The position numbers and the translations under genes are program-made. Below the pieces are notes generated by a model, which saw only the letters and a program-made list of their open reading frames with translations, made no database searches and was not told the origin of the DNA. Positions 15,770 to 49,277 of a stretch of 64,000 nucleotides of DNA are shown piece after piece. Every line of letters begins with the position of its first letter. Position 1 is the stretch's first letter. The stretch covers positions 124,001 to 188,000 of the forward strand of contig JBEWZL010000076.1 in assembly GCA_045837725.1 (NCBI GenBank). Direction: 5' to 3'. The DNA comes from Vermamoeba vermiformis. Lineage: Eukaryota.

Positions 15770-17073
15770 ATGGATTTGTTTGAAAATTACGAAAAGGAGT
15801 TGCAATTAGCGGTGGACACAGCCACTAAAAAAGTTCGTCAATTATCCTCTGTTACTGGAGGTAAGTAAATTACATACGTTATTCTATTTATTAAATTATT
15901 AGGATTATTAAACGAATAATTGGCTAGATCGAAATGAAAATTACTCGTCTATTTCAATTTTATCGTATATAATTAACTTTATCTATATAGAACGCAGAAA
16001 AATTATTTTGCAAGAAATTGATGCAGAAATTGAAAATATCAGAGACTTGGTAAGTCTTAACTCGGCTAGATTTCAGCGTAGCACATCTACGGCTTGCTTT
16101 ACCATGCACAATCTCAATTTTGCAACGCCAAATAATGAATAGCTATAACTATAGCAGCATAAAATAGCTTGATATTGTTGGATGGTTCAACCTCGCTAGA
16201 ACTCCGTGTTAACTTTGTTTCTATATTTAGATGGACAATATGCGTCACGTGGCCCGCAACAGCCGAGGCAGCGATGCAATGAATGTGCGCATTAAGGACT
16301 ACGATCGCAAAGTCGATGTATTGACACGTGAACTGAACGCTACTCGCAATCAAACCAATCGATCAGACTTGATGGCTGGTGCTACTGGCAGAAAGTTCGG
16401 AGATATCGAGGTACGCTCTTTGCACTTAATATTTCCTTATTAGGCAATAACCAAACCTCTAACACAAAATACTACCATTGCGACCTCATTACTTGTCTCA
16501 CCTTGCGCGCTCTATCTAAAACAAATTTACTGCTTCCAGCATTAACATTGAATTTTATTTGCAGGCCCAAGAAGGAGATCAACGACAAAAGATTCTTGCT
16601 GGCAATCAAAAGCTGTTTGAGGGCTCCGAACGATTGAACGAGACGCAACGTATTGCTTACGAAAGTGAATCTATTGGCACACAGACTATTATCGATCTTA
16701 AGCGACAGAAGGATACTCTTTTGCGTGCTCGAGATGGTGTAAGTAATCTCACACTTTTTCTACGAGTTAAGGACCCGATCGGATCCGCAACTTTTTGTGC
16801 TTGCACATTTTTTCTGCTGCCCTCTAATCGAACAATATTTTATATCGATACTCTACCGTGGGTTGTCTATGCCATATATTAATACTAATGATGTGCTATT
16901 CAATGTAGTTGGAAGACATCGATGACAATGTGACTACTACACGAAAAGTTTTGGGAGCTATGTCACGACGTGTCGCTACGAACAACGTTATTTTGGCATT
17001 GATTATTCTCATATTGTTCGCTACTATCTGTCTCATCGTTTGGTTCAAATGGCTCAGACACCTCATCCAATAA
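15770..17073 (+). CDS. VTI1: Vti1-family Qb-SNARE
   Basis: MDLFENYEKE N-terminal helical domain, RSDLMAG, SNARE motif QRQKILAGNQKL...SERLNETQRIAYESESIGTQTIIDLKRQKDTLLRAR, then KVLGAMSRR and a C-terminal TM helix. Confidence 0.92.
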
Positions 17074-17595
17074 GCGCAAGATCTCAGGTACCTTTATTAT
17101 CTTGCCGGCCTTTTTGTTATTGTTATACGTAGATTGTTATCTAAGATGCTTTTATGCGATTTGATGTGCAGCGAGTGCTTCACATTGGATTGTCTGACGT
17201 GTCTTGGATCACGCGATCTGCACCCAAAATGTACATAAAACAATATTTCTAAACCTATCCAGAGTCCAAATGACCTCACATCATCTTACTGCCCCCATCT
17301 ACAATCCATAGTGCTGTAATAATGCACTGTGGCTAACCTCCCTACAGATCACAAGATTCAACAAATGAGCGGATGCGTTCAACCAGGGTTTGCAATTCTG
17401 CTTACTGACTAACCGGTTTGCTCTTCCGTAGTACACCTGTACACTATAGATACGCTATGCGTTGGTTGATTCAACGAATATGACACTATTTTGAGACATG
17501 CACGGACCTTTGACTATGTTTGACTTTGTTCGTCACCTTGTTTTGTTCGATTTTTCCGTGTGCGAGTTTTAGTATTTTCAATTCAAACAGCAACC

Positions 17596-18051
17596 ATGGA
17601 AGCATTATATCGTGGATTGGAATTGCCCTTTTATATTTTTAGGGTGCCCAATTTGAAGCTCAAAACGCCTCAAATCCCAGATTTGGCTCCTATGACCGTG
17701 TTCTACTTGGTCTTCCTCTCTTACTTCTTGGTCGCATCTGGCGTCGTTTATGATATTATTTCAGACGCCCCTGCTATGGGTCAAGTCACTGACGAAGTCA
17801 CTGGTGCTCAAAAGCCCGTTGTATTTATGAAGTACAGAGTCAATGGCCAATTCATCTACGAAGGATTGGCTGCTGGAATGTTGTTTTCGCTTGGAGGACT
17901 TGGATTTATTATTTTGGACAAAGCAAACAACAAGGGCATCTCCGAACGAGACCGTTACGTGCTCATGTTTGCCGGTGGAGGCGCCATCTTGTTGGCTTAC
18001 AACCTTTTGATTGTATTCTTGCGAATTAAGATCCCTGGCTACCAAGGATAA
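17596..18051 (+). CDS. OSTC: Oligosaccharyltransferase subunit OSTC/DC2 (intronless)
   Basis: VPNLKLK...SYFLVASGVVYDII...P...KPVVFMKYRVNGQFIYEGLAAG...GGLGFIILD...FLRIKIPGY. Confidence 0.93.
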   Translation: MEALYRGLELPFYIFRVPNLKLKTPQIPDLAPMTVFYLVFLSYFLVASGVVYDIISDAPAMGQVTDEVTGAQKPVVFMKYRVNGQFIYEGLAAGMLFSLGGLGFIILDKANNKGISERDRYVLMFAGGGAILLAYNLLIVFLRIKIPGYQG

Positions 18052-19815: not shown

Positions 19816-21993
19816 ATGTTCTCAACGCACACTTGGCGGATCGTGTGTCTCGGAACACGTAAGTTTAACTCACATACTACCCTATAAATGTGTTTAGCTA
19901 GTCGCTCACATGATATTATTCCTTAGTGCTCATTTGTTCTTGCATGGGACTCGAAGTTACAGCACCTGAAAGTATAGCCCACACGGTAATAAATTTTCTC
20001 TCCTACCACGATAGATTATCTCTTTATTTATTAAGGGTATAATAACGATGATCTAGCAATGCCTTAATATTGCTGGGGTAATATATTAATAATTGTTTAT
20101 CGAGCAATGGTATACGAAAGTTGATCTCAGCAAACACTGTATGAAAGTGCCAATAATGCTAATCACGTTGATAGGTGTTCAATGCACCGCGATATCGATG
20201 GGTGGGACCAGAGGATTGGAGCTTCGATGTGACAGGACAGCTGGTCGATGAAAGGGACACGGATCTTGTCGAAAGGTATGAAAGTACCATGATTTGTACA
20301 AGATTCGTTAAATTCGATTTTAAACGATCTGAATATGCATGAACGCATCGAAATTCGACGCAAATTGAATTTAATTAATTTGACGCAGGATCGTTCTAGT
20401 TGGTTACACGCCGGCAAGAGAAAAAAGCCAAAAAATCGAAAGCCTTTGGCGTATGAATGTTTCAGCTATAGTGCTGGTACCCGACTCTGCTCCAGGTGAG
20501 TCTAACTCATTAATTAGGGTATTTTCCGGTTAAATCACAACGCATCCAAATTCAGTATACTGCATTTCAGCTTTTATCGATAAAAACCTTTAGCGGTACG
20601 TTTATTTCAGTTGATCTTACTGGCTTGAACAATTATGCACGGGTCACACTTCAATATGATGTCTTGGTACCAACTGTAATGATCTCGAACTTCACGTGGC
20701 AACAGATCCGTACTTGGCTTGATGATGGATTGAATATAACGGTGCGAGTAACTTCTACTGGTACGAGTCTATATGGAATATTTTTAGACTTTAGGTGGTG
20801 CAAAACACTTTCCTAACGTAACTGCAGATGTAAACCAATGGGATCTCATGATGCACTCCGGGGCAATGGTCTTCTATTCAGTATTCCTATCTGCGTTTAC
20901 CGCAACTTGCATCGGACTTGCCGCGTACAAGTTGATTATGTTCGTGCGTGCTAAGGGCTGTCAAGAGTCGATCCCGCAAACCATGCTCATCTTCGAAATC
21001 GTCGCTAACACTCGTAAGCTTACTAATGCTTGTTCGATTATAATAATATATATGTAATTAACGGCTATAATATTGTTTTAGTTCGTCTGTTCCCTTGTGC
21101 GGTGGATCCGCTTCAGTCGCGTACTCTCTTGCCATATATGGCTATTCAGGTGTTCTATACCATTAGCTGGCCGTTCGTTATAATTAATTTGCTATTAATA
21201 AGCTTCTATTGGTACGTCCCTTTGAATTTTGAAACTTACCTAACCTAGCTACGTTACACAACAATGAGCTGATTATGCTTTTTAGGCACGAATTAATGCA
21301 AAAATCGTCGTTGACTATGAACACATTCTTATCCAAACTACGCATACCATTCTGGATCATCTTCGCTCTGCTACTCGCACTTGATCTCACTCAAAGTCTA
21401 CTTCGTGGCCTTCTGTTCGAATTGAAGACGTTCTTAACTATCGTAGGCGTCATATATATAGTATTTGGCCTATTGTGCGTTATATTCTACATTTACACTG
21501 GTACAAGGTTAACGCGTACAATGACTAAAGTCTCGAAGAAGATGGTCAATTCAAATAGATTAGAGCGACTCAAAAAGGTACGTAGTAGCATTTAGCCAAT
21601 AAGGTATGATTGATTTTATGCTATATAAAGTTTTGCAACAATTTTGTAGCGAGACGGATCCATTTTCCGACAACGGTCTATTTTTAAAATTAAATTCTAT
21701 TTTTAACAGTATCTTTTTAGACATCAAGATTTATCTATGCAAGTGCAGGAGGTGTTATTGTGTGGCTAATAGCTGTAGCTGTTGGTGGTCTAACCTCAGC
21801 GTTTTGGATCCCCTGGGGCTTTTTCAGCGTATGGATTGTTGCTTTCACGTCTGTCACGTTCATCAGTTTGATGCAAATACTCGCCATTCATGAACCGAAT
21901 TCGTTGTGCGGAGTGCCTAGAACTTCTACAGATGTCTCGCTGTCGAAGCCAGGGAACAATGGATCGTCATTTAATGGTTCAGTACGAGTTTGA
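19816..21993 (+). CDS. PA-like ectodomain + 7TM receptor-like protein, paralog 1
   Basis: Signal peptide, VFNAPRYRWVGPEDWSFDVTGQLV, VPTVMIS...WLDDGLNITVRVTS, then seven hydrophobic segments (YKLIMFV...QTMLIFE...SWPFVIINLLLISFYW|HELM...LMQILAIHEP). Exon layout shared with the paralogs. Confidence 0.85.
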
Positions 21994-22337
21994 GTTGTTG
22001 TAATATATGCGCGAGTTGTACAGGTAAATACAATTATATTTTTATAGTACTTTAGTGGTGGTGCCGACAGTTTTATTTAACGGCGAAACTTTCTCCGTTG
22101 AATCCAGCGAGCAGTTACCACCGAAATCACAGAAAGTTGGTATTTGATATTCAAATTTAACAATATTAATAGTATACAGCGATTTTTATCTCACTTAAAT
22201 CTCTAGCCTTTCTTGGATTGATGATTTTGACATCTGAGAGCAAAAATCTCGTATTTGGCTTGGTGACGGAACATTGTTTAGGTCAGAATTTATAGTTTTA
22301 TAAACTGAACTAATGACGCAACAGTTAGGCCCATAGT

Positions 22338-24453
22338 ATGAATCAATTGCCTTCTTATTTGACGTGTCTCCTTATCATTAGTAAGTTGCAAAAATTTATG
22401 AAAGATTCCCGTTTCTAATACGCGTAGTTTGTTTAAGTTCATGCAAGGCTCTACAGATTTTGGCTCCGCCTGAAGTTGCGAATATAGTAAGCATAAATGA
22501 TTATATAAACTGCCTTTATTTTAACACTTAAAAATATCTTGTTGCGAATCCAATTTTTTCGAGCGTTTTCGCGTGTACATTATGAACATAGATGTATTAT
22601 TTTATTTTTGCATATTTAACCAGCCGATTCAATTTTTTATCTTGCAATTTCGGATTAGATCGATCAGTTTATTGGCAAGTACTAATGGAGCCATTTTTAG
22701 AGGTTTGAATCTCCAAGGAGCTTTTATGTTGGACCTATGCCGTGGAGTTTTGATGTCGTCGGGGCGCTTGTGAACGACAATGCTACGGATGTCACAAACA
22801 AGTATGTCATACACAAAGCAAAATACTGTCAATATTAATAGGAAATGCGCCATCATTCCTTTATTAACGCACAGATTCGTTTTATTGTTTATACTTGATT
22901 TGATTTAACTAATTACTGTGTTTAAGGATCGTCTTGTTTAGCTATCGCTATCCAGCGACTTTACGAATGGATGAAGTGACGAGACTATGGGAAAGTGGCG
23001 CACTGGGGATAGTTATGGTGACTGATCCGTCGTTAGGTGATTTATATTACGATTAAATCGAAATTTATTCCGCCTCTAACGAAATTTCTGTTCAGTGAAT
23101 ATAACCGGATCCAGCAACTACGCCCTCGGTGATGTACAATCTGATATATTACTACCAACAGTGATGATCTCCGAAGTAACCCGTCAAATTTTGCTTGATT
23201 GGCTGGTTCAAGGCATGAACATCACTGTACGAATTACTTCTGAAGGTAGGCGCTATATGCGTCATATAAATTTATATACAATATTAATTGCTTACCAGAT
23301 CCGAATCAGTGGGATGACATGATGAGATCAGATGCGATGATTTTCTATTCGGTCTTTTTGTCAGCCTTCTCAGCGGCGTGTCTTGGCTTGGCTATTTACA
23401 AATTGTTTATGTTCGTCAAGGCTAAAGGATGCCAACAATCTATAGCCCAGACGATGCTTATTTTTGAAATCATAACTAATACAGGTAAGATCTGGATGCC
23501 GCTAAAAAGCAGATCCGTTCAAAATATTAATTTCTTCGATAGTACGGCTGATCCCTTGTGCAATCGACCCATTGCTCTCGCGTCAAATATTTCCATTTAG
23601 ATTTGGCGCGTTCTTCTTTACAATGAGCTGGCCGTTCTTAATGATCAACTTGTTATTGTTGAGCTTTTATTGGTACGTCTACAATGCCTCAAATAACGAT
23701 GAGATTCTCGTTAATAATGCTATTTCCGTTATAGGCAAGAGTTAATGCTCAAATCATCGCTCGTTATCAACACATTTTTGAACAAGTTGAAAGTGCCTTT
23801 TTGGGTCATTTTTGGCTTGCTTCTTGCTATCGAAGTGAATAGTAACGTCATTAGAGGCTTTGGGTTCGACCCCGCGATATCAGTGCTGATTATCAGTGGG
23901 TTCTATCTGTTGCTTGGCACCTTCTGCGTGATCTACTACATCGTTACTGGCACGAGACTTGTTTTGAGTCTCAATCGAGCCACGAAGGCTTTTGTATCGA
24001 GCAAGCGAGCACAACGATTGCAGCGAGTACGTACATAGTGTGATAATATCAGAAACTGAAATTATTCGGCTCTACCTGATCTGGATTTGAATTTTTCCGT
24101 TTCTGCTTTCTTTCAGAAAAAGCGATGTAATTTTAACTCTCTTTGTTTAGACGTCAAGGTTTATCTACGTGGTCGCTGCTGCTGTCATTTGTTGGCTAGT
24201 TATCATTTCGCTCAGTTTGACGGACTTGTTCTGGCTGCCTTGGGGCTATTATGGCATTTGGTTCTCGCAATTCTTTATCATCACGTTCATTAGTCTTATG
24301 CAGCAGCTCGCTATTCAAGAGCCAAACTCCGCTTGCTCGATCAAGAGTTCCCAGCGGTCTACGGGTACATCTGGCAAATCGAACCAAGAAAATCGCTTGA
24401 GTACCAAAGAAACTCCGCTGACGGGTGCTACTCCGTTAACTCAAGAAGTGTAA
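22338..24453 (+). CDS. PA-like ectodomain + 7TM receptor-like protein, paralog 2
   Basis: MNQLPSYLTCLLII|...RFESPRSFYVGPMPWSFDVVGALV...SGALGIVMV...LLPTVMISE; same 7TM core and intron phases. Confidence 0.85.
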
Positions 24454-24759
24454 TATATTTATGTGCATATGATGTTAAATAAAATGAGGTTTGTTTACCG
24501 GATGTAGATCGCTCTCCCTTATGTATTTGTAAATATGACTATTCATGAAACGAACGCAGATGCTCTTGCAAACACTATTAAAGAATTAATTCCTTAACTG
24601 TCAGATTCAAAAGCAGATTGCGGAGCTGCTTTTACTCCGGTGACACGAACCAAAGAATCACAACTGACTTCTTGATTGTTTCAAAACGACGAAAATAGGT
24701 TCAATCGTAATCTTGTGACATAGACAAAAGCACAACTTGTACATATAGTTCTTCGGCAA

Positions 24760-26836
24760 ATGAATTCCAAATCGGTTTTGATATTTTGCTTTATAGTTGC
24801 AACTGGTAAGTTTTTCTAAACATTGTCGAAGTCTGATCTCGAGCTATTTGCTTTGAATATTAATAATCCTAATTAATTAATCTCACTCATAGCTGTAAAT
24901 ATGTCAGAAGCGTTTTCCATTATTGCGCCAGAAGATCTGAAAGACACTGTAAGTTTACGCTCTGTGACGACATTAAAAAATCATATTATCACCGTTCATT
25001 CGGATAAAATTCGTTGAAATCAAATTCTTGCCGAACACTTCATGATCAGATTAGATCTTACCTGATTTTTGTTTGAAAATTGTGTTAGGCTTACCCTTTT
25101 AGCGGAATACTTTGCATTTCACTAAGCGTTGTATTTTCAACAGTTTAATTCACCTCGGTTACGATGGGTTGGTCCGTCTGACTGGACTTTCGATGTTACG
25201 GGCGTTTTGGTGCATTATAATCGTTCAGTCGATGTAACAAATAAGTACGATCGGCTAATCGTTTTAACATAATTATCCGTTTAACTTCATATATAGGATT
25301 GCTTTAATAAACCTGTCCGACTACGGTGACATCGACGATCTGGCCAATAGACGTGCCCTGGGGGCTTTAGCATACACGGATAATTCACCAGGTAGATCTT
25401 ACCGCCATTTGACGGCTAATTATGTAATGTGCGGTGTCACCAATTTTTTTTCCATTTTAGGAAAATTCAACTTTTCGGGTGCCTCGCTCATCATTCCTAA
25501 TTAATTTATTAATTACATAATGCAGTGGATATCCCTGGGCTTGCAAACTACGTGGTTGCTGAGGCCCGTTTTGAGACCAAATTGCCGGTGGTTGCAATTT
25601 CGGAGATCGCGTTCAATAAACTTGGTTCATGGCTCGATGAAGGAAGAAATCTCACTGTTAGAGTATCTTCAAATGGTATATACGCGCTCATTATATCTAT
25701 ACCACTTCGTAGCTAAACGAAGTATTTTCAGACGTGAACGAGTGGGATCTGATGATGGGGTCAGGCGCGATGATCTTCTATTCAGTATTCATGTCTGCAT
25801 TCACTTTGACTTGCATCGGACTTGCTGCGTACAAACTGATCATGTTCGTGCAAGCCAAAGGCTGTCAAGAGTCAATTCCTCAAACGATGCTAATCATGGA
25901 GATCGTAGCGAATACGAGTACGTAACAAAAAATGTCGCTACGAACTAGTGGCTAACAATAGTAATTCATTAGTCCGTTTCTTCCCCTCGGCAGTGGATCC
26001 GCTCCAGTCTCGCGCATTATTGCCATTCGCGGCGAGTCAAATGTTCTTCACAACGAGTTGGCCCTTCGTTATCATCAATCTGTTGCTGATTAGCTTTTAC
26101 TGGTATGTCCAAAGAGCAACACAGCTGCTAACGATAACTAACTAACTACATTAGGCACGAGTTGATTAAGAAGACCTCGATGAAGATCAATACATTCTTA
26201 GACAAACTGCGCATCCCATTTTGGTGCATTTTCGCAGTGATCTTGGCATTGGAGCTAACAGCGAGTATTCTACGAGGAATGAGATTCGACTTGCAAGTAT
26301 TTTTGGTCGTGATGGGCGTGTGTTACGTCGTCATTGGCTTGGCATGTGTCATATTTTACATCATCACAGGCATCAGGTTGACAAGAGCTCTTCGACTTAC
26401 TGCAAAAAAGATTGTTAATTCGAGCCGAGCGAAACGTCTAAACAGAGTACGTACTTCCGAAGTGACACTTTGACACGTGTCATCCAGATCTCAATACTTC
26501 TATGGATAGTATCTAACGTCTCTTATCTGTTAGACATCGAGATACATCTACGCAAGTGCAGGAGGTGTGATTGTATGGCTGATTGCTATAGTCATCGGAG
26601 GTCTAACGAATACGTTCTGGCTGCCCTGGGGATACTTCGGTGTTTGGTTCGCTGGATTCCTTGCCATCACGTTCATCAGTTTGATGCAGATCTTGGCCAT
26701 TCATGAACCAGGTTCAATTTGTGCAACTCCATCGTTCAAGTCGACTGAACGTACTTCGAAGAGTACACCAACGGATGGAACAGGTTCAGCTCATTTGATG
26801 ACGCCGATAGGCGATCATTCTTCGCCAAGAGATTAA
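24760..26836 (+). CDS. PA-like ectodomain + 7TM receptor-like protein, paralog 3
   Basis: MNSKSVLIFCFIVAT|...FNSPRLRWVGPSDWTFDVTGVLV...RRALGALAY...KLPVVAISE; same 7TM core. Confidence 0.85.
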
Positions 26837-27178
26837 TAGATACACTTGTAATTTATGTAAATAGTAAGTTATGTTTTTTCTTGCCTAGTGTCCCTGACCT
26901 TGACGGGAGCCAATTTTTTCCATAGCTCCATGCGATGTATTTATGGAGGAAGTTATTGGCAGTCAATTGTGCTCTTAGATACGATCCGAACGTTTTGATT
27001 TCGCAATGCGCGAATCTTCTTAATCTCCCGCGCACGAGATTAACGATCACAATGTGACGTGAATGTGACAGGCACGCTGATTTTGTTTTTCGGTTCTTGA
27101 TTAGTTAATGTGATTACATAGAGCCACTAGGCACATATGATAGGCTGTAGTGGTGGATTTTAGGCTCTAAAAATCAAA

Positions 27179-29495
27179 ATGATAAGTAGATCTTTGCTGA
27201 AATTGTTTTTCCTCGTAGGCAAGTTAACGGGTGCAGAGCAAAACGCTTCATGCAATCCATAATACTATTAAGTCATTACTAACGTGGATTTTTACGTTAG
27301 GCTTTTTGAGCTTAGCAGTTGGTTTGGAAATATTGACACCGGAAGATCTAGCAAATACCGTAAGTTATTTAACCTTATTTCGACTCGTTAACGAATCATT
27401 TTAATTTATTACGCGCTAATATTACCATGATTTTGATATACTGTTCGTTGGTGCAATTATTTGTTTCAGCTAGACAGATGGCGAAACGAATTTGAAACGG
27501 ATAGTGAAAGTTTACTAATAATGTTATTATAGAGGTTTATTGCACCTCGATTACGATGGATTGGACCCGATGATTGGGAGTTCGACTTGATCGGCGAGCT
27601 AGTTTCCATAAATAGCTCAGATGTGGCCAACAAGCAAGTTCTAAATTCCAAAATGCCGTTAAACGAGTACCAAATGTTCTAATGCGTCATGTATTATAGA
27701 ATTGTCCTCAGTAGACACTACCAAAACGAAGAGCTCGAAGATCTTTGGAAAAGAAATGCGTTAGGAGCCGTTGTGTATTCAGGACATTCACCAGGTACTT
27801 ATAAGAGCCACTGTAGGCTCGTAGTTATAAAAATCGCGCGAGTTCGATTCAGTCGCTTTTTTTACCATATTTAGCAAAAAAAGAAAACGTTGGATCTGTC
27901 GATTTTGGAATTTATCGGGTCATTAACCAATAACTTTTGCAGCTGATATTCCAGGCATATCGAATTACGTCCTAGATACGCCTCAACGCGACGTTATCCT
28001 GCCTACAGTCACGATTTCAGTTCAGACTTTTGAAAAATTGCGAGGCTGGCTTGAAGACGAAGGAAGAAATATTACCATCCGCTTGACTTCTACCGGTTCG
28101 TTCAATTATTATATCGATCGGAATTTATTCCGCTCGGAAAGCATTCTTTTGATTGATCGTTCATTGTTTCAATCCAGATCGAAGTCAATGGGACGAGATG
28201 ATGCATTCAGGCGTGCTTATATTCTACTCCGTATTAATGTCTGCATTTACACTGACATGCATCGGCCTCGCCATTTACAAACTGATCATGTTCGTGCAAG
28301 CCAAAGGCTGTCAAGAGTCGATCCCGCAAACTATGCTCATCTTCGAGATTATTGCTAATACGAGTAAGTAGCGTGTTTATATTAGTAATTTTTAATAGGC
28401 ATTTATTAATGAGAACGATTAGTTCGATTTTTTGCGAGTGCTGTGGATCCGCTCCAATCACGAGCAATCCTGCGGTACACAGTGAGCCAAATGTTCTTCA
28501 CTACTAGCTGGCCGTTTGTCATTGGCAACCTCTTGCTGATCAGCTTCTACTGGTACGTGACAAACGCTTACATAGCTCTCGAATACATTGACAATTGACC
28601 ATCACGCGATGATACTTTGACACGCACAGCATTCAATCAATTAATTTTAAGCCACTACTATTAATATTCAATTATGAGTTATTATCGTAGTACCTTTATA
28701 TCTGTCTTTATCGTCTTCGGATCCAGAAAATATGACACTTTGACACTTTGACACGCGACTAACTTGCCTTACTAGGCACGAATTAATGAGCAAGAGTTCA
28801 ATGCGCGTCAACAGATTCTTGTCCAAGTTGAGAATTCCATTCTGGTGCATCTTTGCAGTCATCTTGGCGATGGAACTAACAGCGAGCTTGTTGCGAGGAC
28901 TTGGCTTTGATTTGAATATCTTTTTGATAGTGATGGGCATTGGCTACATCGTGATTGGACTGGGCTGCGTTATTTTTTACATTTACACCGGAAGAAAATT
29001 GACGAAGATGATGGACAAGGCCTCGAAAGAGTTGATTGCTTCGAATAGAGTCAAACGCCTTAATAGAGTACGTCACCAAAATTTCAATCCATAACATTTC
29101 CTTTTTAGGCAAAAAACAATTTGTCAAATTTCGAAAATTTTCTTTCTGATTTTGCGAGGCCTTTTACGTTTTGTCAATCACTCACTAATATCTTTTAGAC
29201 ATCGAGATACATCTACGCAAGTGCAGGAGGTGTGATTGTATGGCTGATTGCTATTGCCGTTGGAGGCTTGACAATTGTGTTTTGGCTGCCGTGGGGATAC
29301 TTCGGCGTTTGGTTCGCTGGCTTCTTTTCGATCACGTTCATCAGTTTAATGCAGATCTTGGCCATTCATGAACCAAGATCGATCTGCGCTAGACACGCCA
29401 AGTCCACTGACATGTCGCAGACCAAGTCAAACACGACGCTCAATCTGTCAAATACTCAGCCTAATTCTCCGATTAACTCCGTGCGTTCTGAGTAA
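27179..29495 (+). CDS. PA-like ectodomain + 7TM receptor-like protein, paralog 4 (two GC-AG introns)
   Basis: MISRSLLKLFFLV|GFLSLAVGLEILTPEDLANT|RFIAPRLRWIGPDDWEFDLIGELV...RNALGAVVY...ILPTVTIS; GC donors at 27219 and 27634 in positions where paralogs use GT. Confidence 0.85.
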
Positions 29496-29594
29496 CGAAA
29501 ATATTATTTTAAAAATTGTTTATAAACTAATGTACAATAAAAATTTAGATTTAATAGTGGTGGTATATAATTACAAAATTGGGTGCGATGAAAT

Positions 29595-32500
29595 TTAACA
29601 TATTTTACAGCCGCTACTGTCTTTAGTCTCCTGCGAGAACTCAGTGATAAAAATTCGCGGAAAAGAGTTGGTCCAATAGGTGGATGTGTGAAAACTGGAT
29701 GGGTCAGATCCAATTCCTGACGGCAAAGTCTCGTCGGGCGGAATATCTTGCAAGAACATTCGTGCTTTGTTTTCATCTTTGACGTTGTGCTCGATCCACA
29801 GGTACCACAAGAAATTGGCGCAACGCACTTCATTCTTGTCGCAGCAGATGACAAAATGATCGTGTTTTTCTACCGAACAAATCAAACATTAGTAAAACAA
29901 TAATAACAACGTTAATAATAATCCATCATTATTATTAATGTAAAAGAAGCAGGTTCGAAAGAAAAAATTTCCAAAATCGTTAGGGTTAGGGTTAGATTTT
30001 TTTTTTTTGACTTGTTACCTTCGTTATAAAGCGTCAAAGAAAAGCTATTTGAGTTAACAGTCGACATAAAATTTGATCCGTGCTTAGAACTGACGATTTC
30101 TGAGACAGTCTCTATTTTGCCGATGTGATAGTTTTTCCAGCTGATCGGAAATTGGTGGATCGGGTCGAATCGCCACTACAGAATAGTAATTAATATAGAA
30201 TAGTAGAATAATAGTATATTGTATTCTTACTTCGTGTGAATGGTGACGTGTAAAGACTTTCTTGAAGCTCTAAAAAAAATGTCAAAAAAATGACACGTGT
30301 CAAACTAGCTAACGATGCTGTTTAACTATGACTTGATAAGGTAAGTATTTTTAAAGTGACACGTGAAAAAATAAATCTTTGATTAATATTTTTCAGCATA
30401 ACTTCGCCTTACCTCTCCAAAACTCGAAAAAAATAAAATGCTGCATTCGCCGTCTTCAGCTATTCTTATTTTAGCCTTTTCATTATCGATCGTTTGATAT
30501 TTTACGGTGACTTTCATTTGCATTGGTATTTTGAGAATGTCGATCATCGTTTTAATCATCGTGAAATTTCGTGTTAGTAACGCCTCTGTAAACCATTTCA
30601 GTGAATTTTGTTCGTATTCTTCTTCGAAATTGGGGTCTGCGCCTTGTTTTGGCGGATTTTTCGCGAGAAGTTTCACGTATTTTGGCCACAGATCTTTGTA
30701 CTGCTCGAAGATCGGGTTGCAATGAGCAGCATATTGATAGATAACTTCAGGATTATCTATCTTAGACTTAACAATAAAATATTAAAAAAAAGGTTCTTAG
30801 TATTAATTATTGATAAAATTGAGATCCGTACCAGGGCTCCGTGATCCACCAAAATGTTCACAATAGGAATCCATTTGTTATGAACTGGCTTCGATAAAAC
30901 GTACTATTATATATATTAGTATTAACATAGATTATACTGTTTGAGACTCACGTCTAATGCGGTCAAATCTTTCGCGTTAATTTCGTTGACGTCAACACCT
31001 CTCTTGATCAAGTACTGCAGCGTCTTAGGCCTCGCTGAATATGCAGCCAAATGTACCGTTGAATCATAGTTGGCATTAGTAGCTAATATATTCACCCGCG
31101 AGTCTTTTCCAATCTAATACAACGAGTCAGTAAGTGTCAAAAGTGACAGGTTGACACGTGTCAATAACGTTTTTTCACGTGTCAAACGGAGACTTGTACG
31201 AATTTATAATAACGATTTGAACTATTAGGTCGGGGTTTGAGTTTGACAGGTGTCAAATAGTGACACGTACCATTTCTTCGAGTTTTTTAATCGCGTTCAA
31301 ACAGGCGTTGTCATTAGTGCTCTCGAGAATACAGTGGTGATAAATAGTGTTTTTGAAGTCAAATTCCAAGTTCAAAATGTATTCTAGCGGCAACATACTG
31401 AAATTATCTTGCTGCATAAAAAGTGAAAAAAAAGACGTTAGTCTATAGCCAAATAAGGCAAGAAGTTGTAATGGTATGCTTACCAGCGCTATAGTTACTA
31501 TATTTGGTATAAAATAATCGGTGGCTAATTCCACGAAATCATGTCGCTCTAACCGCAAAGCAGTTGAAATAAGTTCTACGATTGTTTTGGGTGTCATTTG
31601 CCTGTTCAAGAAATTCATGCAATGTATTGCGAACGTCGGACAAAAATATTGTTCCGCTAATTGATCTCCGAGCATCGCTAACTCGATTGATGGAAACTTT
31701 GGTTCATTTCCTAATTTGGAAAAAAAGTTGGATCTCGTTAGTGCTCCATCTAAGGACCACTATTATGACATGTATAGTATACCTGTATATATAGATTCCA
31801 AAAATAATTGAAATAGCGGAGTTTTTTGTTCTTCGTTCATGTAGCCAGTAAGATCCAAAACAATTTGTTGCGCTGACTTTTCTTTCATTTCTGACGCGAA
31901 CATTGCTTGAAAATAATCCGAATCTGCAAATATAACATTATTACTATACGATATTGTAATATTACTGTTATTTAACGTTCAATAAGCAACCGATTTTTGG
32001 ATGTGGTTGTAACGACAAAAAATATTCTATTAGAAGAATCAATTTTATACCAAAAATAGTTAATTTTATACTTACAATGCACGAGCACCATTTTATGACA
32101 AAGGAAATTATTATTAGTGCCTTTAATACTAATAATTATGTCGCCGTTAGGCGTTCTTCGTCGGGGCACAGGAACAGTGACTTTTATCGTTTCAAAAGCG
32201 GGCTTGGGCGGTTTAAATAAGCAATATAATCCATATTTCTAAATAAGGAAATTAATTTACGGTTAATTTTTGAGGCGTAATAATTAAATAATGAGATCTC
32301 GAAAAATATTTGGATCTGACTTACCTCGCACAATTCTATAAGCTTGTCCTTATTCTTTGATGCTATATTATATTGAATTGCTGTATATGCTTCATGCCCC
32401 ATATAAAACATGCTCAAAAACAGTCTTGTAAGATCCGCGTCATTTTCTAGATCCGATACAATAACAACGCTATCAATATTATCGCTTGAATTATTTTCCT

Positions 32501-32699
32501 CGAATTTTCTTTTTAATAAATCTTCTAGGAATGCTGGACTTCGTCGTTGAATAATAAATTTGTGGCAAGTGAAATAAGGCGATCCGCTGTCGGTTGAAAC
32601 AAATACTTTTAAATCGCTGAATAATGTGTTGTTGAACCATTGGTCAAAATTTTCATATACATTAGCCAAGTGTTGAGGCACAATCACGTCATTTTCCAT
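29595..32699 (-). CDS. Tandem BTB/POZ + ankyrin-repeat protein
   Basis: BTB1 FNNTLFSDLKVFV...FTCHKFIIQRRSPAF; BTB2 GDIIISIKG...FLCHKMVLVH|SDYFQAMFASEMKE; ankyrin STVHLAAYSARPKTLQYLIKRGVDVNEINAKDLTALD; ends ...SGCKIC*. Confidence 0.8.
29980..29995 (+). repeat. Short interstitial telomere-type repeat (TTAGGG)2.7 inside an intron
   Basis: TTAGGGTTAGGGTTAG read directly. Confidence 0.7.
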
Positions 32700-33139
32700 T
32701 ATTATTTTTACTGATCCTAAAAATAATTCCGCAATTAAATTTAAAATCAAATAATTGGATATTGTTTGTATAGGCTCGGTAATATTAATATTATTAATAA
32801 AATAAATTGATAAATTATGAACCAAGACTTCAAAACCAGAAAATCTCTGATCTACTTACGTTATTAGAGTTCTTTAATGGTGGTTATACTCCATAATTAA
32901 TTAATGCTATGATCAAGTGTGGTATATCTATTGAATAGTCTCTTTTAAATAGCAGCGTAACAAAAATTAAATTTCAAACAAAAACGTCAAGCTTCACCGA
33001 AAGATTCTCCTTCGCTACGCTTTAGAAAAAACTCTAATCCTAATAGGAATACCATTCTTAAACTATAGTTACGCCGCCAGGGTCCAAAATAACTTAATTT
33101 ACAACCGGATCTAGTCTCTTTAAGTTTTATTTCAGTTTT

Positions 33140-34951
33140 TTAAGGCTTGAATCCAGTTACAATAGAATAATAAGCGTATGAAGGCGTGATATCAATGTTA
33201 ATGAATCCAATCTCCGTCAACGTTCTTTGCAACTCTTCAGCGCTGAATTGTTTGCCTCGTGTGTTGAGCAACATATGCATTGAGAAGCACGCTGCGGTCA
33301 AATCTCCGTCCTTATTGTCTCGTAGTAATATCTCGTGCACTATATATGGTATAATATTAATAAAACGTTTTACTGGCATTTAAATTCTTCCGCGCATCCG
33401 CAAAAATAATTTCAATGATGCTCAGCCACCATATTATACCATAAAGACACTCAATATGGACTAACATAATATGACATATAATGTATTACTTAGTCGCAAA
33501 ATTGAATTTTGATCTCTACCGGATCTAAATATCGTTGCTAAATGTACTTACGATGGATCCTGCCACCAGAGGGTAATGCATCGAAACTCTTCTTTGCTAA
33601 TATCTGACACGTGCTCCAGCTCCAATCGTGGAAGATATTTGAGAAGAAATGAGCATCGTAACCTTGCGGCCATTCCTCGGTGAACATGTTCAGCGGATGT
33701 GTATCAACTTTGCCTTCAACTAATAATAAAATGGGCCTATTAGCGCAAAATAATACTATAATCAACGCTATTAATATTAAAATGCGGTTCATAATGTTCA
33801 AGGTACGTGAATCTGGATTCAAATCCGATCGCGAAACTAATTTCTTTCAAATGTTGTTCTTACCTTTAAATTTCGCAATATATTCATGAGTAATTTTGCA
33901 CACGACGGGAAGTTCAGCGACGGTGATCTTTTCGAGCTGGTGTTGTTGTGCAATTGAAATGGCAAAACAGCCGCTGCCACCAGCCACGTCTAAAAATTTC
34001 TTAGTCTTGCTCCAATCATAATTGCGCGATGCTCCCTGTATAATAAAAGCATATTAGTACGATCTTAGTGAAAATAAAGCGTTTAAAGCGCTTAAAAGTC
34101 GACTCAGATCTCGCGATCGAATTTTAAATTTACTTCGTGCATCTCTGATAGACCGATAGAACGTGAAAATATGATATATATAATAGTATAGTGATGATAA
34201 CGTACAATAGCGGCGGCAAAGGAATGAGCTTGCATAGCGTTAGTTAGATGTCGAGCGCGGGCCTCAGATAAGTCGCCCATTTCCCATTCTTTAATTGGTG
34301 CGCTGTCCATTGGTGCTTTTGCCTTAATAACATTAAGCAATCTATTATGGTAATCATTCATAGGACCAGCGGACGCGAGCATAGACTTCCTGCAGCCAAA
34401 TCCAAAAAGTTAGAAACTGCATTTTTGCCTTCAAATAGCATATAATACGCACCAATAGAATACACTCTCTGGCAACAAATAAGTTCTAGCAGCATCGGTC
34501 AAGAAGAATTTGCCCAAATGTTTTGTAACGAGTTTTAATCCAGCAAGCACGGCCATAACAGCTTCAGCGGCACGAGCACTAAAAGAGACATTAGGAACAG
34601 CTATTATTATAATAGTTACGTACTCTAAGCCGAGTTTTTCGGTGATTTGTTCGAGGGTAAGGCTCTTTTCTATTCAAATTGTTAGATCGAGCTACCAAAA
34701 ACCAACGACAAACTTTAGTATTTAAAATAATACGAACCTTTATGTAATAATTCAAAAAGACCAATTTCAATGCTCACTGTCACGGTAGCAAGGTGGTGCT
34801 GGCTCATCCAAATATCCCTACGAAAATTTAATTAATTGATTATCGTGCAAAAATGCTATAAAAATTTATAACAAAATTATACGTACCATAAGATATTATC
34901 GGGAGTGGTGGGAGGCTCAATCTTAGATAGATCTTTTTGCAAGAAAGACAT
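33140..34951 (-). CDS. SAM-dependent O-methyltransferase (Methyltransf_2; ASMT/BchU/CrtF-like, with N-terminal dimerisation domain)
   Basis: IEIGLFELL...TLEQITEKLGL, AMQAHS, motif I FLDVAGGSG, NMFTEEWPQGYDAHFFSNIFHDWS, ALPSGGRI, TRGKQFSAEEL...GF. Confidence 0.9.
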
Positions 34952-35419
34952 AGCGATGCTGTATTAATACGGATATGCGGTATACTATTCGTTATGTGCT
35001 AGTAGTGCAGTAAAATACTAACTAATGCAAAAAATTCCTTTTTGACTTGTCCGCAAAGAACCTTCGGGAAAAAATCGATAGCTTCTGTGAAGGTTCGCAC
35101 GACTATTGCTGTACCGGCGCACGCGCAATGTGAATTGTGAGCGATAAGTAATATTTAGTAATCGAACGAGTCAATTCTATGCCGCGATATCTCCTGCGGT
35201 GCATCTTCCAGATTCGAAAAAAATCTGGATCTGAATTCTGCCCCGCTTCAAGTCTTTCCGCTGTCCATTCCTTTATAATTATATGTGGTGACAAATATTG
35301 CTTATGAAGGTTTTTGTGCGCTCTGTTTGTCCATCCAAAAAATGGAGATAACTTTTCATCAGGCATTTATTTTATTCAGCTCACAAATTCGAAATCGGAC
35401 ACATAAGCTCATAATAAAT

Positions 35420-38400
35420 ATGAATGAGCATTTTGGTATACCGGCAAACAACCCGAACATGCCGATGAACGATCCGTTTACGGGATTTAAACTCGACACT
35501 GACGGATCTTTCAAGCACTTCCCTGGAAACACGATAGTAAGCTTTTTAACTAAAGAAGAGCACTCAGTATGGTACAAAGCACTGCTTACCTCGCAAGAAA
35601 TACTTCGCTCAAGCCGGATTGCGCAATTTTTTTCGATCGTCCCGCCACAGACATTTCACATCACTATTTTCGATTTAATTACTGATGTTGGAAGAAACCC
35701 GCAGTATTGGCCCGCTCATATTCCTGTAAGTCACTATTATAGCATCTTTGGGTTTATTTTATTTATTTTTTTTCGGATTCACAATCATCTCACGCGATTA
35801 TTTTTTCGCTATCGCAATTTTATAACATTATAATAAGCTTAAAACTAATATATGTAATTAGCTGAGCGCTCCCCTCGAAGAATTAGAAGCAGAAATGATC
35901 CGAAGAACAAAGTACGTGATCTCGTTAGAAATAAATTCTATAACTACTAATATTACCAAATATAGAGCAATTTTCGATCGTGAACGATTGCATCCAACCT
36001 TATTTAAATTTAAATTTGCTGGAATTAAGTTGGGTTTGACGTTCCGAACTTTCAGTATACTTTTAGAACCGGCTGATGGTAGAACTGCCGATCTAATGAC
36101 TAAATGGCGTCGAGGTACTATCATATAATACTAACAATAATTTTGTGCCCGAAATACAGCTAGATCTGACTGAATTATTTTCAGAGGTGTCTTTGCATAG
36201 CGGAATTGGCTTTCGAGAGAAATTATTCCACGTAACTATGGCTTATCAACGTCAAGCTATTAGTCAAGAGTTCCTAGATGATATTAACAAATTGAATACG
36301 AGCTTGGAAGGGTACGCCTTAAAAATATTTATTGCAAATCCAGATCGGGACTTGAAAATAGCTCCCGTTGTATTTAAAAATGCTTATTAAATGTTATATG
36401 AACTAATTATGGCATTGTATAGGCTTTGGAACGATGCTATCAAGATTCAACCCGAAATAATTCCGCAATCGCCAGTACTCACATTTTTCAGGCAAGATCC
36501 GAAAGCTATTTCGATGATTAAGGCTAATTATACTATATTTATAGAGATATGATGGATTTTAGAACACTTCCGCTGTTTACATCAAACTTATTGCTGTCTG
36601 ATTTCATTACGTTGCGACAAAGTCAAAATCAACCGCAAGAAAAGCCAAAACCAAAAGAAATCATTCTTATATTGGGATACCAAGTCAAAAAAGTACGTAA
36701 TTAATATTAATATAATTATTATTGCCTAAATAAGCAAAAAACAATTGCGTTGTTTTAACGGATCCAAAAGATCTGAGTATAATTTACAAAATAATTGATA
36801 GTAAATATGATATCGTACTAATATGGTTATTATAGAGTGGTAGACCGCACGTTATAATGAAAAATCGATTGAAAAAAGCAGTTGGCGTTTACTTTGCAAA
36901 AGTGACCGAACACAATCAGCCTGGACGCGTGAGTTTCTTTTTGACAGGTGGATATACGACTGGTCATATTGAATCTGAAGCTACTGTTATGCGAAGATGG
37001 CTCTTAGACGGTAAGTCTGAAAGTTTCAAATCCAGATTGAGGATCGAGATTCGGTTTTGCGAAGAAACTTCGTGCTAATGCAGTATATTAATATAGGATA
37101 TGGTATTAGTCCCGACGCGATTTTAACGCCCGAAGAGCGAGCTCAAAATACCGTCGAGAGCGCTTATTTCAGCAAACGAAAATTATTGAAAGAAGGAATC
37201 AACACTGTAAGCAACGATTATCGATTGATTTCTTAATATATTAACTTATATGTATACTATAGGGTGATATTACAGTAATTACGAGCGATTTCCACTTGCC
37301 TCGTGCTTCGCTCGTGTTTTTACATTGCTTCGCAAAATCATCGGTAAGTAGCACTTTATGCATTCAATCAGCTATTATCAGTTTGTCTAGTATATATACC
37401 ACTCAATAAATTAAATATAAATTATTGCAATACGGTTATGAAGAGCGAGACTGCAGATATTTTAGATCGCAAAAAATCAGTCAGTTCTTTAAACACCAAT
37501 AACAATGACTCAATTCGATTTAAATTTTCTCCTAAGTTAATACTCATAAATAATTTAAATGATACTATTGAAACAGCGATAGCGATGCTTGTCCTGCTCT
37601 ACTGATCCAAAATTAATTTCCTTGTATTATTACAGTTCAGCGTCAATTTCGTGACAGCCCCCGCGAGCAACGAAGCCAAGCACGCCGATGCCGTCGAACA
37701 ATTGAAACAGCAAGAAATTGAATTGATTTCGCAGACCCCTGAACAGCTCAAAACATTCGACAAAAAGTTCACCGAACAAACGATTGCTAATTACGAATTT
37801 ACATTATGGGAGGATATTAAGAGGGGTAATATAGCGGGCGTAGAATATTGGCTGAAAAAACATGCTGGTCAAATTAATTCTCAATTTGATGAAAATGGAA
37901 GAACGCCGTTGCATGTCTTGGCTGGCTATGGAAACAGTGCGCCGCATATTCAAATTGCCCTATTGTTGTTGAAAAACAACGCGAATGTCAACGCAGCCGA
38001 TTTTCAGGTACCACATCCGCTCCTAAAAAAAATTAGTAAATCCGATCAGATCCAAAAACTTTCTAATCACCTAAATCCCATTACAATAATTATATTAACG
38101 CTTATTGGTATATTATAGGGCTGCAGACCGCTTCATATTGCCGCTGCAAAGGGTGCTACAGTCATGGCTAAAATGTTTTGCGAGTTCGGTGCTCAAAAAC
38201 AACTTGCAGGTAATTACAATGCAAAAATAAATATAAAACGACTATTAATTAACACTATCATTACATTTAATAGGCCAAGGACCATTTTGGAAAGGAAATT
38301 TGACGCCTCCTGAGATCTTAAGTTTAGATGAGATCAAACAATCGATCAGCGAAGTAGACCACTCGATTATGACGCTAGGACTGCACTGGAATAGAACGGA

Positions 38401-39384
38401 CAAAAAGAACGTATTTTTAGTGCGTCATGCTGAGTCAATTGCTAATCGTTGGTACGGCTACAAAAAACCCATCTCGATCTTGGATCCGAGAATTTCCGAA
38501 GCAGGTGCGTAACACGAATATAACCGTAGAGATATATATTAATAATGAAATGTCAGGCGAGAAGAGTTTAGCGCAATTACGTGAGGCTACAGCACCATCA
38601 ATTCAAAATATGAAAATCGATCTGATTTTTGTCTCGCCTCTGACTCGTGCTTTGCAAACTTGCTTAGGAATTTTCGAACAAGCTGCCTTAGCTCAGGTAT
38701 TGTACAATACAGATTTCTTTTACGGTTTCGTTTTTGTCATTGTTTGAATCTGGATTCGTTTTGTACTAACTTAATTATTTTTCTAAGAATATCCCAATCA
38801 TCGTCGACGAGCGCATTAGCGAACACTTAGCAGATATCAGCGATATTGGCAGACCTAAATCAGCGCTCATGAAAGAGTTTTTGTGCCCGCAGTTGAAGTG
38901 GGACAAACTCAAAGAACTTTGGTGGTACACGCCTCAGGGACCTGTAAGTATATCATGTCTTAGTACCTATAGTACTACATTCAGTGCTGTATATGATATT
39001 CTTGCCTGTCCTTATTAATCGTTTCTTTTACTAGAGCGAATTGACTCCGCCAAACATAACGCAAGTAGCCAAAGAACCAATTGAACACTTTAAGTACGTA
39101 ATATTCGAATCACATCTATTTATTGAGCTAAAAAATAATAACTTAAAATTGTTGTCGAAGAGAAAGTTGTCGAACAATTAATTTTCGTAGCATTTATTCA
39201 GGTGATAATAGTGACAGTAGCTTATTCTATATTTTCTAGGCACCGCTTGACAAGCTTTTGGAAAGATTTGGTCGCTCGCCCTGAGATGAACATTGCCGTG
39301 GTGGCGCATGCGGGAGTGCACAGAGTACTGTCAAGAAAAGAAGCAAAGTTAAGAAACTTGGAGATATATCCTATGATAGTTTAA
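35420..39384 (+). CDS. Fusion protein: DUF1868-type 2H phosphoesterase + DUF218 (YdcF/ElyC) + ankyrin repeats + histidine phosphatase (PGM-like)
   Basis: In-frame spliced path: FKLDTDGSFKHFPGNT, HITI, HVTM, FFR|DMMDF; IILILG...NRLKKA...LTGG...SEA...EERAQNTVESA...VITSDFHLPRA; GRTPLHVLA, RPLHIAAAKG; FLVRHAES, VSPLTRALQT, DERISE, VVAHAG. Confidence 0.8.
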
Positions 39385-46979: not shown

Positions 46980-49277
46980 TTAATCTTGGTCGGATCGGAC
47001 TGAAGAAGCATTACCAGATGAGTAAGACGTCGTATGACGATGACCAGTGAACTGAAGCTGCGAACCATTTTGAGATCCGTTTGACTTCGTCCTCGACATA
47101 TCCGTTGAAGTGCCGTAATACGAGCAAATCGAGCGCGGTTCGTGGATCGCGAGGATCTGCATGAGACTCACAAACGTTATGCCAAAGAAGCATGCGAACC
47201 ATACTCCAAAGTAGCCCCATGGTATCCAGAAGGTATCAGTCAAGCCTCCAATCGTTACAGAAACGAGCCAGATCACAACTCCGGCAATAAGGGAGTAAAT
47301 GAACTTGGAGGTCTAAATGAAGTATAAGTATTTCGAAGAGAATGGTAATGACGTATATATTATAATAAAGACTTCTCTTAACGAATTTAAAGAAAATAAG
47401 AATTCACATCCGTTGTTTTGTAACGGACGAGTACGTAAACAAGCGAATCAGCTCCACTTACTCTGGTAAGCCTCTTGACTCTATTAGATGCCATTAACTC
47501 CTTCGAGGCCTTTTGCATCAGCTTAGTTAAGCGCAGCCCAGTAATCGAATAAAAGATGCAGCAAGCTCCAGCGATGATAATGTAGCAGACTCCCATAACA
47601 AGTCTGAACGTGTTAAGATTGAGTCCAAGTGCGCGCAGTAGACTAGCTACGAGCTCTAGGGCCAAGATAACCGCAAAAATGCACCAGAAGGGTATTCTTA
47701 GGCGCGATAAGAAGCAATTGATTTTCATCGAGGTCTTCGTCATTAACTCGTGCCTAAAATATTTGACATTATATATTGTAGGTAACAGGATCAAACTTAA
47801 TTCTATTTAAAGCAATTCAATTCATGCTATTCATTCCGTGGCACGTTAACCAAATTAGGAAATGCCTAAATTCGACGCTCTGACTTACCAATAAAAGCTA
47901 ACCAGCAACAAGTTGATGATAACAAAAGGCCAACTTGTCGTAAAGAGCATTTGACTCGCAATGTACGGCAGAACTGCGCGAGATTGGAGCGGATCTACGG
48001 CACTGGCCACAAAACGGACTAAGAAAGAAAATTGGGAGTTAACTCGTATTACTATAATGACACTATATAGATGACATACTTGTATTCGCAACGATCTCCA
48101 TAATAAGGATCGTTTGCGGGATCGATTCTTGACAACCTTTTACTCGCACAAACATGACCAGTTTGTACGCAGCAAGTACGATGCATGTTGCAGTGAATGC
48201 AGACATGAATACTGAATAGAATATCATCGCCCCCGACAACATGGACGCATCCCAAGGATTGACATCTGGAAGTCGAGATTAAAATCTTAATCGAAAGAGT
48301 TTCATGTAAGATAAAAGACATATTCGTGACTCTAATACATGATATTATAACATTACGTACCAGTAGAAGTAATTCTAACGGTTACGTTTCGACGTTCTTC
48401 TTCGATCCATTTTTCTAACAGGTCGTACGTTGGTTGAGATACAATTACAGTTGGCAACAGTACGTCAAAATATGTCTCAAGACCGCGGACATAATTATAT
48501 AGGCCCGGAATGTCCACTACAAAGAAAAGTAAGCTCAGATCGAAAAAGCTGTCAAACTCGATCCAATTGAAATTCCATTTTTGGCAATAACCGGCCGCAC
48601 GCGCGGCCCGTTAATATCAAATACTGTAATAATTTTATGATTTTTACTTACGCGGCGAATGTCCCGTCGCCACCGCAACTCCTGCCGCTTTTCGATTTAC
48701 CAGTTCTGCTATTCGTGAATATTCTTGATCTTCCAGTCGCATCAATACTATTCTATTTAATATAAAATTAGCATTAAATACTAATTATTGGCATTTACGA
48801 ACTTTTGTTCGACATCTGTGTCGTTTATAGACCCCAGCTCCGCAACGACATCGAAAACCCATTCTTCGGGACCAAACCATATTAATCGCGGTGTATTAAA
48901 GGTCTGTAGGATAAACAAATTAGACGTGGGGTTCAAGCGTCAAAAAAAATCTTCGTCACAAACCAGGATGCACATCCAAGATCGTTCGAAAACAAATCTG
49001 AAATACGTATTTAATGTAATTTGCATAAAATACCAAAAATGAGCATATGATAATAACTTGAAATGAACTACACTTACAGTGACTAGATCCTCAGGCGCCA
49101 ATACTTCCATCGACTGAGCTGAACTGAACAGCAAGCCTGAAGAATATATATTTGTCAATATTTACATAAATATACAATGCGTATAATCAGATTCGAAGTT
49201 GTTCCAATATGATTCAATAACGTACACATGTAACTTAACATTAGGACGCATCCAGTCCACCGCACTTGCTCTTTCAT
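46980..49277 (-). CDS. PA-like ectodomain + 7TM receptor-like protein, paralog 5 (inverted, ~17 kb from the tandem array)
   Basis: MKEQVRWTGCVLMLSYM|CLLFSSAQSMEVLAPEDLVT|TFNTPRLIWFGPEEWVFDVVAEL...RKAAGVAV...LLPTVIVS; same 7TM core and intron positions. Confidence 0.85.

Follow-up and report, generated by a model that had tools for sequence, protein, structure and literature searches.

Five paralogous genes of Vermamoeba vermiformis and the apparently undescribed family of putative PA-domain seven-transmembrane receptors to which they belong

We analysed a stretch of 64,000 nucleotides from the amoeba Vermamoeba vermiformis (contig JBEWZL010000076.1, positions 124,001 to 188,000; hereafter the window), which contains five paralogous genes encoding putative receptors. 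Four of the genes lie in tandem on the + strand (19816..29495) with spacers of 344, 306 and 342 bp, and the fifth is located outside this array on the - strand (49277-46980). Joining the exons at GT/GC-AG sites yielded five intact frames (Table 1), all of which consist of nine exons with identical intron phases (1,0,2,1,1,1,2,0). Each predicted protein comprises a signal peptide, an ectodomain of approximately 130 amino acids (aa), seven hydrophobic segments, and a Ser/Thr-rich tail. The initial annotation of this DNA had described five paralogs with shared motifs and a common intron layout, and indeed the quoted motifs occur five times in the window. The same exon joins are present in three independent database proteins (P0006, P0007, and P0001). 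Copies 1-4 were also compared with the spliced contigs of X1 and X2, which are mostly 95-99% alike to the window and presumed to represent RNA. Among the 15 joints listed (out of 24) are those at all eight introns of copy 2 (two of them with a few unmatched letters) and at seven of the eight introns of copy 4, while contig cover was thin for copies 1 and 3. The RNA-seq runs X9 and X11 contributed 68 and 140 reads, mostly <90% alike, which are too few for expression levels. It should be noted that introns 1 and 3 of copy 4 (27219-27300 and 27634-27699) are of the GC-AG type, the second of which was confirmed by reads and a contig. In copy 1, a good donor 9 bases before the stop (21982-22055) and two nearby acceptors may allow an alternative C-terminus that would affect the last few residues. 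Altogether, the genes are real, spliced, conserved, and numerous, and their predicted products share the layout of signal peptide, ectodomain, seven transmembrane (TM) helices, and tail.

The membrane topology was examined in A2, an alignment of 117 family members. Hydropathy averaged over all 117 sequences displays seven peaks after the signal peptide, and the mean number of Lys and Arg residues is 1.5, 3.6, 7.6, and 3.4 in loops 1, 3, 5 and the start of the tail, versus 0.9, 1.0, and 0.3 in loops 2, 4, and 6. Because of this charge bias, the N-terminus is predicted to be outside and the C-terminus inside, so that a seven-helix, N-out/C-in layout is supported by both hydropathy and the positive-inside rule, and the seven helices proposed initially were supported. 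All five ectodomains carry N-glycosylation sequons and contain no cysteine beyond the signal region, and the tails are 31-51 aa long with 29-37% Ser/Thr. Between any two of the five copies, 38-51% of the ectodomain residues are identical, as are 52-78% of those in the TM part and 17-51% of those in the tail; in 12 close paralogs, the ectodomain regions are 29-46% identical, as compared with 42-64% for the helices. The ectodomains have therefore diverged more than the TM core, as had been noted, whereas the description of the core as nearly invariant was an overstatement at such identities, and copy 2 deviates from all four of the quoted TM-core motifs.

The ectodomain had been annotated as a protease-associated (PA) domain. 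A search of Pfam returned nothing significant for 17 single exons of the window or for 7 near relatives, including the full-length P0001, P0006, and P0007. The PA identity is nevertheless well supported by transitive homology through relatives and the family profile. When 85 of the 150 listed representatives, picked by length, were scanned with the PA model (PF02225, cut-off 23.9), 14 scored above the cut-off and 6 more below it, and 25 of the 117 family members matched at any E-value. Among solved structures in PDB, the A2 profile found the PA domain of 2ek8 as its best match (E 4.5e-6), in addition to YwaD, the transferrin receptor, and RNF43. ESM features of residues 22-152 gave PA at 0.86, with 10 of the 10 best named matches in one family, which we take as a lead only. 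The relative P0097 retains the PA cysteine pair that the window clade lacks, and cysteine is entirely missing from 31 of 77 full ectodomains. At the level of sequence profiles, the initial PA assignment thus holds.

The A2 profile also matched ZNRF3 (E 0.001, profile positions 70-172) over the PA domain, the linker, and TM1, and SPPL2 and the PA-TM-RING ligases are the known architectures that combine PA with the membrane. These points raise the possibility of a membrane enzyme in which PA serves substrate recognition, in the manner of an SPPL2 intramembrane protease, a CREST hydrolase, or a PA-TM-RING ligase. We regard such an enzyme as very unlikely, given that the motifs YD..[WF]V and QPAL and the RING domain each occur in 0/117 members and GxGD in 7/117 (0/31 of those from this genome), that no His column is conserved at 60% or more (HxxxH in 17/117), and that peptidase A22 and CREST are missing among the 25 most-matched families. 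Membership in the SPPL2/presenilin-type, PA-TM-RING, or CREST groups is largely refuted by these motifs, the proteins having seven predicted TM helices (as opposed to nine in the SPPL2/presenilin type and one in the ligases), no RING, and no conserved His.

For the helix core, a resemblance to the THH1/TOM1/GPR137 group had been suggested. With the TM profile of the family, the TOM1 gene of this genome scored 39 bits and three other TOM1-like loci 9-24 bits, versus ≤18 bits for 22 control loci (GOST ≤18, cAR-like ≤11.4, class C ≤6.6, and TMEM184). Shuffle controls reached at most 5.9 bits (500 full) and 17.7 bits (500 windowed), and 0/500 window-shuffles reached 39 bits. Consistently, hhalign against two TOM1-type genes gave probabilities of 85 and 88 (E 7e-6 and 3e-6) at 13-18% identity, with the alignment spanning TM3-TM5 and including the L-L-x-x-F/Y-W motif of TM3. 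The true TOM1 gene of the genome scores 157 bits to PF06454, and only 3/117 members match this model at any E-value. The best of them, P0102 from Nematostelium gracile, combines PA with PF06454 at 24.4 bits (cut-off 25), and a protein search with P0102 returned itself and one further protein. One exon of the family member L037 scores 25.5 bits to PF06454, above the cut-off, and a single locus was matched by both P0006 and PF06454. Because only 3/117 members match, we place the family as a probable sister lineage of THH1/TOM1 rather than within it; a remote relationship of the 7TM core to THH1/TOM1 is supported. The TOM1 part of the suggested resemblance thus stood, and for GPR137 there is a weak lead from a language model, in that a neighbouring ESM cluster bears GPR137_N (0.75). 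For the relative P0130, the precomputed annotation is PF02225 plus PF25987, the latter presumably the PRRT3/4 domain.

Weak profile matches to class A G protein-coupled receptors (GPCRs) over TM5-7 (E 4e-4 to 0.02; SSTR2 E 4e-4, S1PR3 0.002) would fit a GPCR-type bundle, and 7tm_1 (PF00001) was matched by 1/117 members (E 0.0096). Membership in class A was rejected on the motifs DRY, CWxP, and NPxxY. As a separate observation, a TOM1-like gene at L032:1501-2109 (-) scores 43 bits to PF06454 and 30.1 of 30.5 to 7tm_1 (E 4e-7), and so forms a sequence bridge from TOM1 to rhodopsin-family profiles. The conserved intramembrane residues Q201, E207, N211, R214, E289, R296, S402, and Q405 could alternatively belong to a ligand-gated transporter or channel, in which polar residues of TM2, TM4, and TM7 line the path and the PA domain acts as a lid or substrate-binding domain; some GPCR-like folds, e.g., SLC51A, transport solutes (PMC10041065; here and below, cited papers are used to the extent of their available text). 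This alternative appears improbable, with a TM profile score of only 2.6-5.3 bits on 6/6 TMEM184/OST-alpha loci of this genome and no transporter family consistently matched among the 117 members.

The window array is a small part of the family. A one-exon search of the 43.3 Mb genome gave 53 matches, and the union of the exon and P0006 genome searches contains 99 loci on 50 contigs, 36 of which have a neighbour within 10 kb; the count is approximate because the searches score only part of the candidates and some pairs look like assembly duplicates. The contig pairs C227/C306, C204/C206, C64/C170, and C153/C202 have identical or near-identical scores, suggesting duplicated haplotigs. We examined 31 of the 99 loci in detail, the remaining 68 being identified by TM matches only. 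At all 31, ectodomain-profile matches lie upstream of the TM exons, while no ectodomain exons were found in L031-L036 and L038. Spliced alignment recovered the same two TM introns in 31/31 models and reached the N-terminal region in 28, with the intactness of these models being partly by construction, as the aligner cannot cross stops. For scale, the same genome has 93 class C and 4 cAR-like matches; many of its class C genes are long single frames. Beyond this genome, P0006 retrieved 576 clusters at 50% identity, and the named members of the 30 clusters checked were from Vermamoeba vermiformis, Rhizamoeba saxonica, Echinamoeba exundans, and Nematostelium gracile, along with two MMETSP transcripts. 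In ESM clusters at 0.96, Endomyxa and Zoopagomycota were the commonest taxa, with few records. On viral contigs, 187 pattern matches were obtained with the narrow alignment A1, none of which was confirmed.

The array had been described as a diversifying repertoire. Orthologs of copies 3, 4, and 5 occur in a related organism represented by metagenome contigs, where synteny extends downstream of copy 4. In a quick tree with SH-aLRT (approximate likelihood-ratio) support, copy 3 groups with P0001, L041, and L042 (97), copy 4 with P0006 and L039 (97), and copy 5 with P0007, L044, and L045 (100). For copies 4, 5, and 3, respectively, identity between ortholog ectodomains amounts to 83, 78, and 60%, and the ratios of nonsynonymous to synonymous substitution rates (dN/dS) are 0.07 (0.03-0.13), 0.09 (0.05-0.16), and 0.13 (0.09-0.27), and the TM parts are 88, 86, and 83% identical, with dN/dS of 0.04, 0.03, and 0.06. 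These Nei-Gojobori values are rough, because dS is high (1.2-3 between orthologs) or saturated. Paralogs in the window did diverge long ago, with dS >1.2 or saturated in all comparisons, and this part of the description stands; the ortholog ectodomains, in contrast, are under purifying selection. We therefore view the family as an old and stable repertoire. Divergence after duplication followed by conservation is the pattern that would be predicted for receptors that each have a distinct and unchanging ligand, and not for an ongoing arms race.

Positive selection on a rapidly evolving array with an immune-like or prey-recognition role, a hypothesis that concerns the mode of evolution and is compatible with a receptor function, would account for the higher dN of the ectodomain relative to the TM part (1.4-2.5-fold in ortholog pairs and 1.9-3.2-fold in three window paralog pairs). 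It would also agree with signs of turnover, namely the duplication of copy 3 in the related organism (L041, L042) and clades of 10 and 3 members from this genome. The low ectodomain dN/dS between orthologs and the high dS within the window speak against it, as does the best within-genome identity of ≤73% among the 31 models, except for a 97% identical pair (L007/L008) that may be an assembly duplicate. We consider positive selection improbable here.

We propose that the window genes belong to an orphan receptor family, composed of a signal peptide, an extracellular or luminal PA domain, a 7TM core that has GPCR topology and belongs to the THH1/TOM1 lineage, and a short Ser/Thr-rich cytosolic tail, and we give this reading an even chance. 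In a first step, the PA domain would bind a protein or peptide ligand with a specificity fixed for each paralog, as PA domains of RNF43/ZNRF3 and GRAIL do bind protein ligands (PMC3937510). For a bacterivorous amoeba, the ligand would most plausibly be derived from prey or neighbours and be encountered on the cell surface or inside the phagosome. In a second step, invariant elements of the outer face may dock the PA domain onto the helix bundle and relay binding; these are the Gly in the P-G loop of the ectodomain, the linker with its D-x-N-P-W motif, the Arg of TM2, the D-P in the first outer loop, and the Glu and Arg of TM4. The most conserved sites are located at the presumed ectodomain-bundle contact and inside the bundle: G104 (96/98), the linker positions N153 (104/114) and W155 (93/114), R214 (112/117), D221 of D221-P222 (105/117), W256 (109/117), E289 (85/116), R296 (91/115), and Q405. 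It is because of the conserved contact sites that we infer the PA domain to be docked on the outer face. In a third step, the cytosolic face would produce an output in which TM3 takes part with its Y-W-x-E end, the third inner loop with its basic residues, and the tail by being phosphorylated. G-alpha and/or arrestin-domain adaptors would be the target, the two outputs being about equally probable; the genome contains 17 G-alpha loci and 12 Arrestin_N matches.

Several observations weigh against this receptor reading. The five proteins and their nearest relatives match neither PA nor any 7TM family in Pfam, and both the PA fold and the GPCR-like bundle are deduced from profiles. Class A motifs are missing (DRY 0/117, CWxP 0/117, NPxxY-like 9/117), and of 68 relatives that start with Met, only 40 passed a crude signal-peptide test. 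In Arabidopsis, binding to GPA1 was seen for the TOM1-like Cand3 and Cand5 but not for TOM1 itself (PMC2530877), and the PRRT and TM184 proteins were found to recruit arrestin but no active G protein (PMC13581589). In addition, TOM1 resides on the tonoplast (PMC10576174) and GPR137 on lysosomes (PMC12716839) rather than at the cell surface. Because of these two locations, an endolysosomal sorting or scaffold role stays alive: the PA domain of a cargo receptor or scaffold of endolysosomes or phagosomes would capture soluble or membrane cargo, and the TOM1-type core would anchor or route it without signalling. TM184C is likewise found on vesicles, and the PA domains of VSR1 (E 0.19) and RNF128 (E 0.094) are among the profile matches, although weakly. 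We judge this role to be rather unlikely. The option of a sorting receptor raised in the initial annotation lost ground when YxxPhi and (acidic) dileucine signals were found in 0/5 tails; furthermore, about 100 paralogs with a conserved polar helix core would exceed the needs of known sorting receptors, and the conserved charged residues in the bundle suggest a switch or pocket.

Taken together, the orphan family is real, apparently expressed, ancient, and large, and its architecture of PA plus a TOM1-lineage 7TM core seems not to have been described before. We found no description of a PA plus 7TM family in the literature searched, most subscription papers being outside that search, and the earlier statement that there is no named family holds for Pfam, NCBIfam, and this literature. 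NCBIfam returned only M36 peptidase models for the 117 members (16, 13, and 11 members), presumably via their PA domains. No PA-bearing receptor appears in the available text of surveys of choanoflagellates (PMC12716839), social amoebae (PMC10445921), and fungi (10.1101/2024.11.25.625238) or of de Mendoza 2014 (PMC3971589), although the supplementary domain tables of each could list one, and nine supplements of PMC13581589 contain none of five looked-up terms. Since automatic annotation gives PA plus PF06454 or PA plus PF25987 on single proteins, the architecture is latent in databases as known parts.

On a broader and more doubtful view, PA-7TM proteins may constitute a class of eukaryotic signalling receptor that is ancient but has gone unrecognised, in which the PA-plus-helix module of sorting receptors and ligases was fused to a TOM1-type GPCR-fold core. 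They may also rank among the two largest receptor repertoires that free-living amoebae possess, serving to recognise proteins of prey or neighbours. If so, a soluble ligand-binding domain would for the first time be known to be built into a branch of the TOM1/GPR137/PRRT orphan lineage, making ligand discovery and activation of this lineage directly testable. Prey recognition by solitary amoebae is poorly understood, and TOM1, GPR137, and the PRRT proteins are all orphans; the PA ectodomain offers a route to test ligand switching of this helix core. Being small, soluble, different between paralogs, and conserved between orthologs, it would be a convenient bait with which to fish for ligands. 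About 100 such genes, as many as the class C genes of the same genome, would escape GPCR censuses of amoebae and other protists that rely on known domains.

Table 1. Coordinates of the five paralogs in the window, with the two protein regions illustrated for copy 4
Feature	Position	Strand	Exons	Remarks
Copy 1	19816..21993	+	19816-19858, 19927-19985, 20175-20275, 20389-20495, 20611-20760, 20828-21013, 21082-21211, 21286-21577, 21721-21993	446 aa; exon joins; few reads cover it
Copy 2	22338..24453	+	22338-22380, 22428-22486, 22701-22801, 22927-23036, 23096-23245, 23299-23484, 23543-23672, 23735-24026, 24151-24453	457 aa; most divergent copy; exon joins and contig joints
Copy 3	24760..26836	+	24760-24805, 24893-24948, 25144-25244, 25297-25391, 25526-25675, 25732-25917, 25973-26102, 26155-26446, 26534-26836	452 aa; exon joins, tree
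Copy 4	27179..29495	+	27179-27218, 27301-27359, 27533-27633, 27700-27794, 27943-28095, 28178-28363, 28423-28552, 28776-29067, 29199-29495	450 aa; exon joins, contig joints, tree
Copy 5	46980..49277	-	49277-49226, 49136-49078, 48903-48803, 48752-48652, 48516-48361, 48265-48080, 48018-47889, 47753-47462, 47312-46980	469 aa; exon joins, tree
PA-like ectodomain (copy 4)	27301..28095	+	exons 2-5	lacks the cysteine pair of the PA domain of relative P0097
Linker and seven-helix core (copy 4)	28178..29380	+	exons 6-9	remote THH1/TOM1 relative

The interval that separates copy 5 from the array contains a gene at 39718-41469 (+), at a distance of 12 kb from the array, that encodes an RGS domain (PF00615, E 2.9e-7, 41014-41466) and has RGS-like text in its upstream exons; we did not count it as evidence. 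At L039:3013-3111 in the related organism, the copy-4 ortholog is followed within ~100 bp by sequence matching the window from 33136 onward, and ~3.6 kb of the window (29510-33136, with open reading frames at 30383-32855 and no clear Pfam match) is absent at that place. A Ser/Gly-rich open reading frame at 7230-7715 (+) has a Cys-Asp repeat and a CaaX-like motif at its end, and its product is possibly lipid-anchored or metal-binding. The other neighbours (16520-18051, 33538-38747, 42195-43171, and 45531-46291) are ordinary: a v-SNARE, an OST3/6-family subunit, an O-methyltransferase, a DUF1868 2H phosphoesterase, ankyrin and histidine-phosphatase exons, an NBR1-type UBA protein, and a BTB protein.

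Among known systems, THH1/TOM1/TOM3 (PF06454, DUF1084) share the seven helices and the homologous TM3-TM5 with the window family. TOM1 has neither a signal peptide nor an ectodomain, whereas the window family has both. Remi-sans-famille (RSF) 7TM proteins occur in amoebozoans and show a weak THH1/TOM1 link according to the available text of PMC12716839, but they carry no extra domain and have an NxLQxxMNxL motif between TM6 and TM7; membership in RSF was rejected, as this motif occurs in 0/117 and 0/31 sequences. The "superdark" GPCR-like proteins PRRT3/PRRT4 and GPR137 are likewise orphan 7TM proteins of GPCR topology with Ser/Thr tails. They differ from the window family in that the PRRT proteins have long disordered termini and GPR137, as described in the same available text (PMC12716839), has no extra domain. 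The PA-TM-RING ligases (RNF43/ZNRF3/GRAIL) and vacuolar sorting receptors resemble the family in their signal peptide and in a luminal PA domain directly preceding a TM helix; their TM count is one, in contrast to seven here, and the family has neither RING nor a sorting tail, with the PA cysteine pair missing from the window clade. Finally, although class C, adhesion, and Frizzled GPCRs and the GOST/GOLD-7TM proteins have other ectodomains and a TM homology not above noise, they provide an analogy of a folded N-terminal domain mounted on a 7TM core and expanded in a lineage-specific manner.

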